From positions 53,047 to 117,046 of the forward strand of contig JAKJDL010000001.1 of the NCBI GenBank assembly GCA_022705945.1: a stretch of DNA of 64,000 nt, in the 5' to 3' direction. This document shows, piece after piece, positions 1,517-8,125 of this stretch. The translations under genes and the position numbers were made by a program. The first letter of the stretch is position 1. Every line of letters begins with the position of its first letter. The stretch comes from Candidatus Omnitrophota bacterium. GTDB lineage: Bacteria > Omnitrophota > Omnitrophia > Omnitrophales > Aquincolibacteriaceae. The notes below the pieces were generated by a model. It was not told the DNA's origin, ran no database searches, and saw nothing but the letters and a program-made list of their open reading frames with translations.

Positions 1517-4500
1517 TTACGCCGAGATCGCGGTCTGCCGGAGGGCCGCAAGGTCGATCACGATCTGCTTGAGCATATTGGCAAGCGACTCGTTCGTCGC
1601 CTTGAGCACACCGTCCTCCATTGTGAACGGGATGTCCTTGAGCAGTTCGCCAGCCTCCAGATCAAGCTGCAGACTCGTCACGGCATTATACTTCTCCTCG
1701 TTCAACTTCTGCGCATACCGCACGAGGCCACTATAGGCCGCAGCGTCATTCCCCACAATCGAGCTTTGATAGTCGAACGTCACAGTTTTCGCGCGATTAG
1801 TCAGTCTAAGCAGGAGATCCTTGAAAACCTCCCTATCGACCTGGTTAACCGCCACCGCCGTCTTTGCCGTGATCTTGTTTTTCTCGACCCACTTTCTGAG
1901 CTGTTCTGCCGTTAGAACGTCAAACCGCTTCCCGAGCCGGATATCGATTTGTTTGTCGAGAAGGCTCCCGTTCCATTTCTGGACCTCATCCCGCATGGCA
2001 ACCGCCAAAGTCCTTCCATCTTCGAGAACATCCGTCTCGAGAACGCCCACCCTGAATCTTATCCCACTATTCAGCGCAAGCATGATCTTGATCATGTCAA
2101 GCTGCATCCTGTAGGTGTTTTTCGTCATGAGCACCAGGGCATCGCCCTCCTCCGAGGTCACCGGGATCGCCCGGCCTTCCGGCAGCGCGTTGATCACCTT
2201 GAGCATTTCACCGCCCAGCGCCGTTGCGAGACCGGTTAAAAGTTCCGAGGCCTTTTCAGGAGTACTCTGATACAGGTCCAGGATCCCCCACACAATCATC
2301 GCTACCCTGATCGCGGCGTCCGTCGCGCGATCTACGTCCGCGAGCTTCACCAGAGAAAACTTCCTCTTCTCCAGCAGTTCCCTCTCACCCGCCGGAACCC
2401 TCTCCATGATCTTCTCGAGACCGGCTTTCGTGATTCCTTCTTCTTTCATGATCCCTTCTTCCGTAATCTCTCCTTCAGTCAGCCTAACCGCGGTCAAGAA
2501 AATCATCGCTTTCTCGAGCGGCATGGCCTCCCTGACTATAAAAGGCAGATCAATGGGAAGGAACGCAATCTCGTTTTGCAAGGTCGCGGAATTATAATGA
2601 ACAATCCTGATCCGACCCCCGACCACGCTGATCCCGACCGCGTAGTTGATATCCACCCGGCCCTGCCCATTCGGCCACTTGATATGGACCGAGGGCGTTC
2701 CGGCCCTGTCGCTCTCCTCCTGCCAAACTTCCACGCCGAATCCGCGAAGCGTTTTGGCAGCCAGCTCGATTTGCAATTCCCGCTCAAGCTCGGCCTTCGT
2801 GGCTTCAAGCCCTGCCTTTTCGGCTTCAAGCCCGCTCCGTTCCGAAATCAGCTTATTCACATCTTCGGGTGTGCGCTGGCTCCCTTCCGACGGAAATAAA
2901 TCGTCAATTGCTTTTCTAGCTTCATTGATCTTTTCTTTTATTTGACCGATCTCCGTATTGATTTGCTCGATTGCTTCTTTATAAATCTCATCAATACTAC
3001 GCTCCCCCCGAATCTCAGCCCGTCCTCTCGTCTCGCTCCGAACTTCAGGAACCTTTTGGGAGAGATCTGTTTCCACGGTAAAAACCACCGTCCGACTCAC
3101 GGGATCTATTGCAACTTCTAAGACCGGTTGGTCGGGATGGGCTCTTAAATAATTCCTCGGAAAATCTGATTTGTTTCCCGTATTCCGAAATTTCACAACC
3201 GGAGAAAATCCGGAACCAAAATATAAAACCAAACCCTGGGCTTGAAGATTATTCTTGACGACCTCTTGAAGATTATTCTTGACGACCTTACCCGACACTT
3301 TTCTTTCAAGTGCCGCGACATAATCGTTAAGAGCGGCAACGAATAACCCCACACTATCTCCGACACGGAGATAATCATTCCATATCCGTTGAAACGCCAA
3401 AGCCTCCAGGTAATAAGGCGCGAACGCGACCGGACCTGTTGTTGCGTCAATATTCTTGCCCCGGTTCAACCATTCCTCCGTCTTCAAAAGTGTGGGCGGG
3501 TTTTCGTAGAGCGCGGGCGGGAGATTAATCTCCTGTTCCAAAGCAGCCTTCCGGCCCCTCGCGGGCGGGAGATTAATCTTCTGTTCCGGAGCAGCCTTCC
3601 GGCCACTCTCTAACATTTTCCGGATCCCATCGAACTTGCGGAGTGCGTCATCCAATTCCTGATCCCTCACCTCGCTTCGGACCTCAGGAGCCTCGTTCGG
3701 CAGTGTTCGACCGCTGAGAATCTGGTCCATCCCGGTGAGCCACTCTTTTGGTTTGATAACATCACCATACACATAACTATCAAGATGCGAAGCTTCTTCC
3801 AATTTGCCAATCATGTATTCATAGGCTTTTGCTAAAAATTCTCGTATCTCCTGCTCACCGGCCGTCAACAACAGATCTCCCGTCCAATGTTTAGTGCCGT
3901 TTACATCAACGTACCCATTTTGATTCTCAGGAATATATACAACCTTCACCACCCACAGACCTATCTCCCTTTCTATGCTTGTGACGGGACTCCCCTTCTT
4001 CTTAAACTCCGCCAACTCCCTCACCTCGCTCCGAACTTCAGAAGCCTCTTCGGGGAGGATGGCAACGGCATCGCCGACCATTTGGCGATATGCCGCTATT
4101 TCCTCGTTCGTATTTTTACGAAGGTCATGGTTCCTCTCAGCCCTATTGAACCATTCAAGCCTATCGATCATCTTGTTGATTCTTTCAGCCAAATCCGCTC
4201 GCACCGCGGTATCTGCTTCTTGCAAGCTTTGAATAGACGCACGGATCCTGGGCTTCAATTCAGCCATCACCTCCGACCCGTTCAGCCGCCGCTCGTTCCA
4301 ATCATGCCACCATTTCTCAATCGGGGACCACGGCCTGTTTTCACGCATTCTCGAAGCGCTTAAATCCTCCAGCAAACCTCTACCCAAACTTACGATGCGC
4401 CTTGAAAAGCTGGAACTCCGCCCCATGACCAAACTCAAAAGAATATTGGCCGCGCCTGTCACGGCTACAGCTCCGGTCGCGATCTGAGCCAGTGTTCGGG

Positions 4501-7500: not shown

Positions 7501-8125
7501 GCATGTCGGGGCTCGATATCTTGGACGAAATCGTTTCAAGGCGCGATTCGAGGCCGCCTACATATTTGTTCACAAGCGGTTCGGCCCCGTAGACTTTTTT
7601 GAGGGCCTCGTAGTTCTTCCGGTAGAGCTCGGCATCCTCGATCCCCTCGGCCGTGACGGCCCGGCGGTCCGATTCAAGCACATAGAGCTCCGCGCCGGTC
7701 AGTTCGCCCTGGCGCGCGAGGAGATCCGCGAGTTTCGCGTTCCGTTCGTCATCGGGGAATAATTTCAGATAATCGGGATCGAGCTGTTCGGCCGCGCCTT
7801 CCACAAAGATCGTGTTAATCGCATAGTTTTTGTTCAAATATTCGAGGAGTTTTTTGATCTTCTGCTGAGCGTCGTAATTGGCGTGGGCGTTCTGGATATG
7901 CAGAACGAGCCTGGGATCCGTCGAAGGAGGAGCTTCGAAAACATCGTCAAGACTCGCGAGATCCGCCGGGATATCAATTTGAAGAAACCCGGGCATTTCA
8001 CCGGCCGGAGCGATCTCGATACCGATCCCGGGTGCGGCAAATGCGATCTGGTTGACGAGAAAAACAGCAGCAGTCGTCAGGCTCATAAAGCGCGTGAAAC
8101 GCTTCATCATTTTGTTTTTAGCCAT
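1517..8125 (-). CDS. Giant (2202 aa) secreted / membrane-embedded protein of unknown function
   Basis: It is a 6.6-kb uninterrupted ORF with a strong RBS (GGAGGAGagtaaATG) before the start at 8125. The N-terminus has a signal-peptide-like segment (KRFTRFMSLTTAAVFLVNQIAFAAPG). There are at least three hydrophobic TM hairpin blocks (aa ~670-740, ~810-850, ~1190-1250). A PEVRSEVR motif occurs four times, and there are internal in-frame tandem repeats. I recognise no catalytic domain with confidence. Confidence 0.85.
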   Translation of the reverse strand: MAKNKMMKRFTRFMSLTTAAVFLVNQIAFAAPGIGIEIAPAGEMPGFLQIDIPADLASLDDVFEAPPSTDPRLVLHIQNAHANYDAQQKIKKLLEYLNKNYAINTIFVEGAAEQLDPDYLKLFPDDERNAKLADLLARQGELTGAELYVLESDRRAVTAEGIEDAELYRKNYEALKKVYGAEPLVNKYVGGLESRLETISSKISSPDMRRMLAEWKKFEKGQREFMPYVKSLAKDARQILKLDLESLFAQVEWPQVTRLLVLQQMEKELDPARALTEKDALLRFMKEKRLPADLISAIDNFRDQHINVTRKGAGGVAEAVQPRYLLERLAREAAPKGFRFSDYPNFSVQAGYLILKSELDSKGLFAEINRLFDSILDKLAETPSQKELLALYRDGELVRKLLNLELTRSDWARIMSRKDAVAIDPIVERLKALGKAVNAEHKLAETSFETKEVNPKFRSAVTELYDAAYDFYDYARARESAFYKKMSEVMYGRSVTKVALVTGGFHTDGVSEILRQNEISYGILTPRLSEKSDEKLYRTAMLQNQPRLFDVSYLEMASKLMPLIAEVAQGVSIGDVYAVILNAMAKVGETDIDSVIAIFNDSLVAAKNGIRIVPAVDARGQPMKSRYKVVSRTAESSSVTIDGIVTASMGPLNRLSAPKPEIKPVTPIEVTTRSEVREQKGVPVNVFVPIFGGIVTGAIVGILSFFKANPELGLSARVILTGTIGVIVAVMAGGLTFLFIEGMSAVAQFVRGALGLDQTRRFSRPEVFIRDIRRTLADPLAYRLLVLRIQLGWMRFQEAIRNATEKTRLKVEIRKTEDEIKKMEEQLSPRSGARDFFSDPVKVTSYVVAPIVTLVAAFVLPVSVLLMISPIVLAMWFAHPVDYLASKLQGKDDGAVSVPAMKPAIPAEAREITEEKGHPGSEVPYARRSEARGEATWMTVTLEYDGKGRKMIVFHGDRNAHFLIPAESDRAARLRVAQRMAEYLRRLYSKHLLYEGGYWFRANKGKIERILDNPRLPMANPDIHEITDIEWLNKMVQGVRVTARAEARAQLRKSMGPDKLADVINDIDTLIARAHAFLAATEEEWPQEEAGPAFVGLMKAGESIVKKAYRDEVPGSVSIDYVFPESVVSDPDGARGHIESLIRGLEDLRGSLARAQREGTPREPLLRDMLFLGSLALYGFPALIVFLTLIEVAYGRISAVAGRHFFGEARTLAQIATGAVAVTGAANILLSLVMGRSSSFSRRIVSLGRGLLEDLSASRMRENRPWSPIEKWWHDWNERRLNGSEVMAELKPRIRASIQSLQEADTAVRADLAERINKMIDRLEWFNRAERNHDLRKNTNEEIAAYRQMVGDAVAILPEEASEVRSEVRELAEFKKKGSPVTSIEREIGLWVVKVVYIPENQNGYVDVNGTKHWTGDLLLTAGEQEIREFLAKAYEYMIGKLEEASHLDSYVYGDVIKPKEWLTGMDQILSGRTLPNEAPEVRSEVRDQELDDALRKFDGIRKMLESGRKAAPEQKINLPPARGRKAALEQEINLPPALYENPPTLLKTEEWLNRGKNIDATTGPVAFAPYYLEALAFQRIWNDYLRVGDSVGLFVAALNDYVAALERKVSGKVVKNNLQEVVKNNLQAQGLVLYFGSGFSPVVKFRNTGNKSDFPRNYLRAHPDQPVLEVAIDPVSRTVVFTVETDLSQKVPEVRSETRGRAEIRGERSIDEIYKEAIEQINTEIGQIKEKINEARKAIDDLFPSEGSQRTPEDVNKLISERSGLEAEKAGLEATKAELERELQIELAAKTLRGFGVEVWQEESDRAGTPSVHIKWPNGQGRVDINYAVGISVVGGRIRIVHYNSATLQNEIAFLPIDLPFIVREAMPLEKAMIFLTAVRLTEGEITEEGIMKEEGITKAGLEKIMERVPAGERELLEKRKFSLVKLADVDRATDAAIRVAMIVWGILDLYQSTPEKASELLTGLATALGGEMLKVINALPEGRAIPVTSEEGDALVLMTKNTYRMQLDMIKIMLALNSGIRFRVGVLETDVLEDGRTLAVAMRDEVQKWNGSLLDKQIDIRLGKRFDVLTAEQLRKWVEKNKITAKTAVAVNQVDREVFKDLLLRLTNRAKTVTFDYQSSIVGNDAAAYSGLVRYAQKLNEEKYNAVTSLQLDLEAGELLKDIPFTMEDGVLKATNESLANMLKQIVIDLAALRQTAISA
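3241..3288. repeat. Perfect 24-bp tandem duplication inside the giant ORF (cttgaagattattcttgacgacct x2), encoding VVKNNLQE-VVKNNLQA
   Basis: Read directly. It is in frame as an 8-aa repeat. Confidence 0.9.
3513..3608. repeat. Near-perfect 48-bp tandem duplication inside the giant ORF, encoding (E/K)INLPPARGRKAALEQ x2
   Basis: Read directly. The two copies differ at about 5 positions. It is in frame as a 16-aa repeat. Confidence 0.9.

Follow-up and report, generated by a model that had tools for sequence, protein, structure and literature searches.

What kind of protein is encoded by a bacterial gene more than two thousand codons long in which Pfam and NCBIfam recognize nothing? The question is raised by a stretch of 64,000 nucleotides (nt) of Candidatus Omnitrophota DNA (GenBank assembly GCA_022705945.1, contig JAKJDL010000001.1, positions 53,047 to 117,046; hereafter the window), which carries on its minus strand, at positions 1517..8125, a single uninterrupted open reading frame (ORF) of 2202 amino acids (aa) that runs from an ATG to a stop codon at 1517-1519 and whose product is identical to protein P0001 of a public collection. 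Neither the whole protein, at E<=1, nor any of its six modules has a match in Pfam or NCBIfam, and phmmer and hmmsearch found no match among the sequences of the PDB. A sequence-only reading made beforehand had seen a giant, secreted, membrane-spanning protein with no recognizable catalytic domain, accessory or horizontally acquired, and possibly involved in cell-cell or cell-surface interactions. It was right to place the protein in a poorly characterized lineage, and it missed the two features on which the present account is built: the EVRSEVR strings as a family-wide delimiter, and an architecture of conserved caps around variable cassettes. The gene proves to be one of a vast set of Omnitrophota giants, not covered by any annotation and composed of two caps and a cassette array, and on balance we think it probable that the array is made of exchangeable in-frame cassettes in a protein directed to the cell envelope.

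A homologue search among 5.8 billion proteins returned 86 relatives of 1.2-3.8 thousand amino acids (kaa), and wherever a source organism is named it is Candidatus Omnitrophota, with a single exception from Auribacterota. These relatives cover 6-34% of the query, typically 25-30%. Alignment mapping places the region common to all 86 at query residues 1 to ~640, and residues ~700-1800 match essentially nothing. A profile of this N-terminal module, for which no Pfam model exists, was searched exhaustively against 1.84 billion cluster representatives (50% identity) and matched 10,293 of them at E<=1e-3 and 7,361 at E<=1e-30. In all of the best 150 of the 10,293 matches the module starts at residue 1-86, usually at 35-60, and the longest protein among those 150 has 7,498 aa.

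The conserved N cap occupies residues 40-575 (6401..8008, minus strand), with conservation running on to about residue 640. This stretch was modeled confidently by AlphaFold2 from an alignment of 29 sequences (predicted local distance difference test score [pLDDT] 86, predicted template-modeling score [pTM] 0.79); the model has a six-stranded alpha/beta core of the TIKI/TraB/ChaN/EreA type, split by a helical insertion of ~330 residues. The parallel beta-sheet flanked by helices that forms the core of this superfamily is present in the model, beside which we name 2rad and 2qgm (erythromycin-esterase-like), 8bqs_DQ (TraB family), HopBA1, RRSP (the Ras/Rap1-specific endopeptidase), ChaN, and EreC. 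In the account of the superfamily given with the RRSP structure, the core fold carries a 2His/2Glu set (E3900, H3902, E3930, and H4030; H85/E113 in Bcr135) and a conserved Arg, R4001 (PMC6254334). The query has counterparts to each of these positions on the minus strand. The N79-A80-H81 triplet (7883..7891) is a [D/N]-x-H element, the counterpart of E3900-x-H3902 of RRSP; E109 (7799..7801) lies 28 residues past H81, the spacing of H3902-E3930 in RRSP and of H85-E113 in Bcr135; R478 (6692..6694) matches the conserved basic residue of TIKI proteins; and H506 (6608..6610), part of an invariant GGFH, lies 28 residues past R478, compared with 29 from R4001 to H4030. All 29 aligned sequences, and 22 long members besides, have H81, E109, and H506 without exception, and R478 is also invariant.

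The superfamily models of Pfam (TraB_PrgY_gumN, Erythro_esteras, Cofac_haem_bdg) do not detect the query, which has no Pfam or NCBIfam match at E<=1; the N-module profile found no sequence match in the PDB; and a Foldseek search of the PDB with the N-cap model gave no significant match, its list being dominated by the helical insertion. The claim that the protein lacks a recognizable catalytic domain stands at the level of sequence and fails at the level of the predicted fold, where the first ~575 residues appear to form a TIKI/TraB/EreA-like core with an invariant His/Glu/Arg/His set. We infer that the head is, by its structure, a highly divergent TIKI-type hydrolase with predicted peptidase or esterase activity. 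The insertion itself (residues ~165-450) gave weak, non-significant, and unreliable Foldseek matches to the alpha-pore-forming toxins MakE, SmhB, ClyA, and AhlC (best E 0.055, prob 0.23).

At the other end, residues 1903-2202 (1520..2419, minus) form a conserved C cap, modeled as a Rossmann-like alpha/beta domain (pLDDT 75) and ending in ...TAISA. An iterated hidden Markov model of the last 300 residues, run over the 86 relatives, finds this module at the extreme C-terminus of 43 of them; a fold search with the C cap gave generic Rossmann-like matches only. The terminal Ala is invariant in a 23-sequence alignment of the cap (...SAA, VAA, ISA). Nearly all full-length members, including those of a distal clade that lacks the motif described below, finish with an amphipathic helix followed by [S/A/V][A/L]-COOH (SAA, VAA, ISA, TSL), and the most distant members still keep the tail, which there reads ...SL, ...AA, or ...SA. 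To judge from its sequence, the tail looks like a recognition signal, used perhaps in sorting or by a tail-specific protease.

What lies between the caps is divided by a pentapeptide, R-x-E-x-R, most often in the form RSE[V/A/M/L/T]R, which marks the borders of modules. In the query (all on the minus strand) delimiter 1, RSEVR at residues 673-677 (CGCTCCGAGGTGAGA, 6095..6109), closes the N cap. Delimiter 2, RSEAR at 928-932 (5330..5344), has as its DNA CGCTCCGAGGCGAGG, the family consensus; delimiter 3 is (SEV)RSEVR at 1365-1369 (4019..4033), delimiter 4 (PEV)RSEVR at 1483-1487 (3665..3679), and delimiter 5 (PEV)RSETR at 1696-1700, followed by RAEIR at 1702-1706 (together 3008..3040). With a variant, RAEAR, at 1044-1048 (4982..4996), the copies comprise three of RSEVR plus RSEAR, RSETR, RAEAR, and RAEIR. 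Shuffling of residues predicts 1.8 occurrences of RSE[VATLMIG]R in the 86 proteins; the observed number is 290, an enrichment of ~160-fold, and the six commonest 5-mers of the variable regions are RSExR strings. The N cap accounts for 23% of total length but for only 4 of 293 motifs. In the typical case the first motif falls just past it, at a median position of 689; the last clusters 290-325 residues before the C-terminus, just ahead of the C cap; and the median spacing between motifs is 217 residues. Members of 4-7.5 kaa have up to 25 copies.

Wherever relatives contain recognizable Pfam domains, the motifs frame them tightly, at distances of 8-17 residues, and no domain has a motif inside it. 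The receiver domain of P0053 (2222-2342) sits between RSETR at 2213 and RSETR at 2350, and in P0061 motifs at 1086 and 1218 enclose the HPr domain (1103-1182). Sequences flanking the motif are rich in A, S, G, P, and E. Variants are homogeneous within a gene and characteristic of a lineage, as with nine copies of RSESR in P0049, seven of RAEKR in P0033, and RPEAR in P0012. We found no description of the motif in the literature. A motif common to the organism at large was rejected, because the remaining ORFs of the window hardly contain it, and so was a phosphorylation site, because the variants of some lineages have A, P, or Q in place of the Ser. Internal translation starts and the scars of captured ribosome-binding sites were rejected as well, there being no enrichment of Met or start codons after the motif.

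The modules delimited in this way in the relatives include response regulators, HPr, kinases, methyltransferases, phosphoribosyltransferases, trypsin-like peptidases, and sugar-metabolism enzymes; the query's own middle consists of dark modules and membrane hairpins. Elsewhere in the family we noted three Trypsin_2 peptidase domains serving as array modules in P0053 (~1450-2100), and Fic, NUDIX, PP2C, SNF2 helicase, and sigma-70 modules in other members, so that the repertoire mixes signaling, effector-like, and central-metabolism domains. The 64-kb window has one copy of the family only. Tandem paralogues occur at other loci: L008 carries the positional orthologue of the query (1808 aa) and then the 7,498-aa protein, which begins with the same N cap (11866-17427); L012 and L013 have an upstream giant gene encoding 3,443 aa, with RSELR motifs and, as read in L012, the C-terminus ...RAVSSAA (L012 1-2850); and L003 has two family copies (3-1190 and 9884-15132).

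If the motif marks borders, are modules exchanged there? Two chromosomal positions can be compared. At the first, the order GcvP-LplA-UvrD followed by the giant gene is common to the window and to L008, which is from another Omnitrophota genome, and the middles of the two genes are unrelated. At the second, PheT-RarA-PilZ-[gene]-DUF1844-LPG synthase-DHQase-BCCP-BC is common to P0036, P0046, P0049, and P0033, whose middles are likewise unrelated. When all members are compared in pairs and the caps are set aside, 37% of the ends of homology blocks (high-scoring segment pairs) have a motif no more than 10 aa away, compared with ~10% of random positions (n=59). The sharpest case is the pair L012 and L013, which are 99% identical over nt 1-4010, then carry unrelated segments of 2.3 kb and 5.6 kb, and then return to 99% identity. 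The left junction runs through CGCTCCGAA(G/T)CGCGG, encoding RSEAR in one gene and RSESR in the other; at the right junction, identity resumes inside R(P/S)EAR. Because R-x-E-x-R sites span roughly 2% of gene length, the chance that both junctions would fall in a motif by accident is small, of the order of 1e-4. In-frame replacement of blocks thus occurs at the motif. As an example of module amplification at such a seam, a 69-aa module (RSEARWGDVESIEW...QVKVSK) is repeated at least seven times in P0013 (L005, 5932-6760 and 9028-10360), four of the copies being in perfect 207-nt tandem, and each copy opens with an identical CGCTCCGAGGCGAGG.

A peptide that recurs at module junctions might owe its conservation to the protein, to the DNA, or to both. 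We compared the codons of 105 unique R-x-E-x-R sites, drawn from 11 genes for which DNA was at hand, with the genes' own codon usage as background. The first Arg is encoded by AGR at 4/105 sites against a background of 26% (p 2e-9), and the last Arg by AGR at 52/105 against the same 26% (p 3e-7); Glu is GAG at 64/105 against 41% (p 4e-5), and Ser is AGY at 8/76 against 34% (p 4e-6). The resulting nucleotide consensus is CGC-TCC-GAG-GYG-AGG, with weakly conserved flanks. Allowing <=2 mismatches, the consensus 15-mer is in the sense strand and in frame 0 in 47 of 48 in-gene matches, and it occurs nowhere else in the 64-kb window. The peptide nonetheless persists through synonymous change, including switches between TCN and AGY serine and between CGN and AGR arginine, and on this ground a pure DNA repeat was rejected. 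Because the peptide survives such switches while its codons deviate from background, the sequences point to selection on the peptide together with an additional effect at the nucleotide level; the likeliest source of the latter is repeated copying of the site or a need for sequence identity at the seam.

The position of these proteins in the cell bears on what the seam could do. Residues 1-30 (8036..8125, minus) resemble a Sec-type signal peptide (MAKNKMMKRFTRF / MSLTTAAVFLVNQIAFA, with cleavage before AP): by eye, a K/R-rich n-region and a hydrophobic h-region lead to an A-F-A|A-P site of A-x-A layout, and the same layout is kept in the family consensus. The secretion signal of the sequence-only reading is in this respect well founded, at least as a matter of charge and hydrophobicity, and its three spaced hydrophobic blocks correspond roughly to the five or so Kyte-Doolittle segments at residues 686-704, 722-740, 851-869, ~1169-1200, and 1215-1233. 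The first three segments belong to a module that also contains a coiled-coil-like stretch (~800-840) and whose residues 832-889 match P0030 (5519..6070, minus); the last two make up a block at residues 1169-1233 (4427..4621, minus) in a region, 1147-1247, that matches P0043. Counts of positive residues, read from the sequence for a positive-inside topology, are ambiguous. The protein is probably targeted to, or across, the inner membrane.

We suggest the following as a working model. The signal peptide would lead the protein into or across the inner membrane. The motif would act as a seam: recombination there would add, remove, and exchange modules with the reading frame preserved, which would make the gene a cassette array inside one ORF. 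The motif may perhaps serve in addition as a processing site, at which a precursor is cut to module-sized products, possibly by the TIKI-type head; this is the weakest step. In its full form, with R-x-E-x-R and its 15 nt serving both as the DNA crossover site of in-frame cassette exchange and as the cleavage site for the head, a dual-purpose splice seam, the proposal strikes us as improbable on present evidence, and we put it forward with corresponding caution. Were it true, it would amount to an integron-like system within one ORF, common to thousands of paralogous giant genes and categorically new, and to a strategy in Omnitrophota that combines polyproteins with exon shuffling and by which the cleavage points of the giants could be read from sequence.

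Several observations weigh against this model. Selection could have favored junctions that preserve domains, which would place breakpoints at the motif with no mechanism of recombination behind them, and a single pair has been followed down to the nucleotides. Nor does a recombinase regularly lie beside the gene: a Y1 transposase adjoins 2 of ~10 loci examined, and neither the window's flanks nor those of 9 related loci contain an integrase. A distant member, L009, keeps the peptide motif with little nucleotide bias. In the distal clade the N cap and the C-terminal tail are present and RxExR is absent altogether; because this clade has the head without the motif, the function of the head is not strictly motif-dependent. 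Within the head, the position of the first Glu of the 2His/2Glu set (residue 79, the E of E-x-H) is D in 14 sequences, N in 13, E in one, and T in one, with N in the query; in RRSP this Glu is helpful, not essential, in cells (PMC6254334). Finally, ~30 of the 86 members have no transmembrane (TM) segment after the signal peptide, yet contain domains of the kinase, HPr, sigma-70, or PGM type, which sits uncomfortably with the localization proposed above. Either whole arrays that include normally cytoplasmic enzymes are exported, or the signal-like segment has another role.

The explanation that survives best among the alternatives gives the motif to a protease alone. The protein would be a self-processing polyprotein, comparable to MARTX toxins, whose exported precursor is cut at every R-x-E-x-R by the TIKI-type head or by another dedicated protease, releasing module proteins or effectors, and recombination would be a by-product. 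Much of what has been described is congenial to this idea, which we regard as possible, if doubtful. Two characterized TIKI members, Tiki and RRSP, are site-specific endopeptidases (PMC6254334), and the query's family has kept its catalytic set intact; motifs enclose entire domains, and their peptide is conserved through synonymous change; and variants that are homogeneous within a gene are expected if the sites co-evolve with one protease. Autoprocessing has, moreover, been proposed for Omnitrophota giants with N-terminal C39 or S8 peptidases (West-Roberts 2023). It is harder to see, on these terms, why the distal clade should have the head and lack the motif, and in multi-TM members the membrane would separate an exported head from motifs on cytoplasmic loops. 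Nor is the codon-level bias explained by a protease site alone.

The protein might instead remain whole. An intact membrane-anchored scaffold, a metabolon or envelope protein in which RxExR is a favored hydrophilic linker and junctions are viable only in linkers, would account for a motif that lies between domains with flanks rich in A, S, G, P, and E. A published topology survey takes Omnitrophota giants as intact and membrane-anchored, and any protease or recombinase acting at the motif is putative only. A generic linker, however, has no need of five fixed positions, of a 160-fold enriched pentapeptide, of variants that change in concert across a lineage, or of a biased 15-nt sequence, and both breakpoints of the L012/L013 pair are inside the 15 nt itself and not merely near it. 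We consider the scaffold unlikely.

It could also be argued that the signal resides in RNA and that the peptide is incidental, with the conserved CGCTCCGAGGYGAGG acting in the mRNA as a Shine-Dalgarno-like GAGG(N)GAGG that induces pausing or internal initiation, or as an RNase site. The strong codon bias (GAG, AGG at R5, G as third base of x) fits such a role, GAGGTGA matches, as written, the extended complement of the anti-Shine-Dalgarno sequence, and the element is strictly sense-strand and in frame. Its chances nevertheless appear slim: many sites keep the peptide with quite different codons, such as CGTAGCGAATCCCGG and CGCGCGGAAAAGCGC; the M, L, T, and I variants do without GAGG-G; starts are, as noted above, no commoner after the motif; and L009 shows that the peptide can be present with little nucleotide bias.

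The genomic setting of the gene speaks to another possibility, that its product has no enzymatic part and is an accessory protein, gained by horizontal transfer, that serves as an adhesin or in interactions at the cell surface. As the sequence-only reading had it, the ORF has a consensus ribosome-binding site, a Shine-Dalgarno GGAGGAG (8131..8137, minus) 5 nt ahead of the ATG, and is preceded by an AT-rich island, an intergenic region of 304 bp with 27% GC (8126..8429). A single sigma-70-like site, TTGACA-17-TATCTT (8333-8305), occurs in that region, which is not above chance there, and a scan for terminators past the stop codon found none that met our criteria. The mobile element it had reported as a neighbor is an IS200-like/REP-associated Y1 transposase downstream (610-1257, minus; Pfam Y1_Tnp, E 9.5e-9). 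Two near-identical palindromic hairpins (CTCCAACACCGGGACTTAGGCCCGGGTGTTG) at ~482-509 and 1334-1361 bracket the transposase gene (region 482-1361). At L006, too, a Y1_Tnp gene (17392-18048) is directly 3' of the family gene. On the upstream side, genes of the same strand (8430-20866) encode a UvrD/PcrA helicase, lipoate-protein ligase, and the P1/P2 and T proteins of glycine cleavage, followed, up to 20866, by FtsA, FtsQ, Ddl, and MurC of the dcw cluster; because these housekeeping genes adjoin the giant gene, its context is chromosomal.

An adhesin would be in keeping with the signal peptide, the TM segments and coiled-coil stretches, the adjoining mobile element and AT-rich region, and the view of Omnitrophota as episymbionts or predators. 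But the composition is native: the GC content, the GC content of third codon positions (GC3), and the codon usage of the whole gene are those of its neighbors (codon-usage cosine 0.96), and together with the conserved GcvP-LplA-UvrD synteny they led us to reject horizontal transfer of the gene as a whole. What is hypervariable is the middle alone, where GC3 is 0.52-0.61 compared with 0.69 and 0.73 in the N and C caps, respectively, and where the lowest values of the gene are reached (GC 0.48-0.50, residues 1370-1706), which fits a different history for the middle modules. No adhesin-type repeats or domains were found by Pfam in the whole protein or its modules, the head has a hydrolase fold with an invariant catalytic set, and the modules of relatives are enzyme and signaling domains and not those of adhesins. 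There is, in our judgment, little to recommend either the adhesin or the accessory status that had been proposed. As for an assembly or gene-calling artifact, a chimeric ORF or fused genes, to which the unusual size and the lack of homologues for the middle might lend color, it is negligibly probable because the identical protein is known from a 307-kb NCBI contig and because both caps recur, cap to cap in a single ORF, in more than 40 relatives from independent assemblies (NCBI, JGI, ENA, Logan), and GC3 is coding-like along the entire gene.

How does this family compare with systems already described? Within the TIKI superfamily it is set apart by the ~330-aa helical insertion between the halves of the core and by Asp or Asn in place of the first Glu, and its TIKI-like domain heads multi-kiloresidue modular proteins that the superfamily's Pfam models do not detect. 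In overall plan it recalls the MARTX toxins of Vibrio, which are likewise giant, with conserved N- and C-terminal regions around a variable array; the analogy is one of design, not of homology. From one strain to another the unrelated effector domains of MARTX toxins are reshuffled, and cuts between the domains set them free. In the query, by contrast, Pfam searches of the whole protein and its modules found neither RTX or glycine-rich repeats nor a C80 cysteine protease; the signal is of the Sec type and not that of a type I secretion system (T1SS), and T1SS genes were not found nearby. RRSP is itself a MARTX effector (PMC6254334). The inter-domain sites here, unlike those of the toxins, are a fixed RxExR pentapeptide, and their cleavage is putative.

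Polymorphic toxins offer a second parallel. The VENN of CdiA and the PxxxxDPxGL of Rhs proteins are short motifs at the border of constant and variable regions that mark recombination boundaries, and in Rhs the motif is also a cleavage site. As in the present family, a short conserved peptide marks the boundary of exchange; whereas those toxins have one variable C-terminal tip and an immunity gene, however, in the present family each ORF has 5-25 delimited modules between its two caps, and genes resembling those for immunity are absent. Integron arrays and shufflons (Rci/sfx in pilV) also use short repeated DNA sites to mark exchangeable units, and in shufflons these sites are in frame within a coding region. 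An integrase, an Rci-type recombinase, and attC-like structure were not found here, and the sites of the present family are 15-mers in direct orientation and in frame, which specify a conserved peptide as well.

The closest comparison is with the multi-enzyme giants of Omnitrophota, the Archaeovorins (West-Roberts et al. 2023 preprint; Nielsen and Lui 2026 preprint), proteins of at least 10 kaa with N-terminal C39/S8 peptidases, SecA-like domains, and dockerins; post-translational cleavage is suspected for these giants as well, and one of the studies states that the cleavage points are unknown. The likenesses are the phylum, the bias toward signal peptides and TM segments, and, in our relatives, the mosaic of methyltransferase, kinase, response-regulator, NUDIX, and sugar-enzyme modules. 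The query differs in size, its 2,202 aa falling below the 10 kaa (genes of >30 kb) of the published giants, and in its makeup, which is a signal-peptide-like segment and TM segments with no Pfam domain. A TIKI-like head, a C cap, a delimiter motif, and recombination within genes go unmentioned in both preprints. The motif-delimited family therefore extends the published picture of Omnitrophota giants down to proteins of 1-8 kaa, and does so with a grammar that can be parsed: a head of predicted TIKI fold defines a family of >10,000 clusters without a Pfam model, a pentapeptide and its 15 nt divide giant proteins into modules, and in-frame replacement of modules at that delimiter is in evidence at nucleotide resolution. 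If the seam is indeed a site of recombination, of cleavage, or of both, it would represent a new bacterial route for building and diversifying multi-domain envelope or effector proteins.

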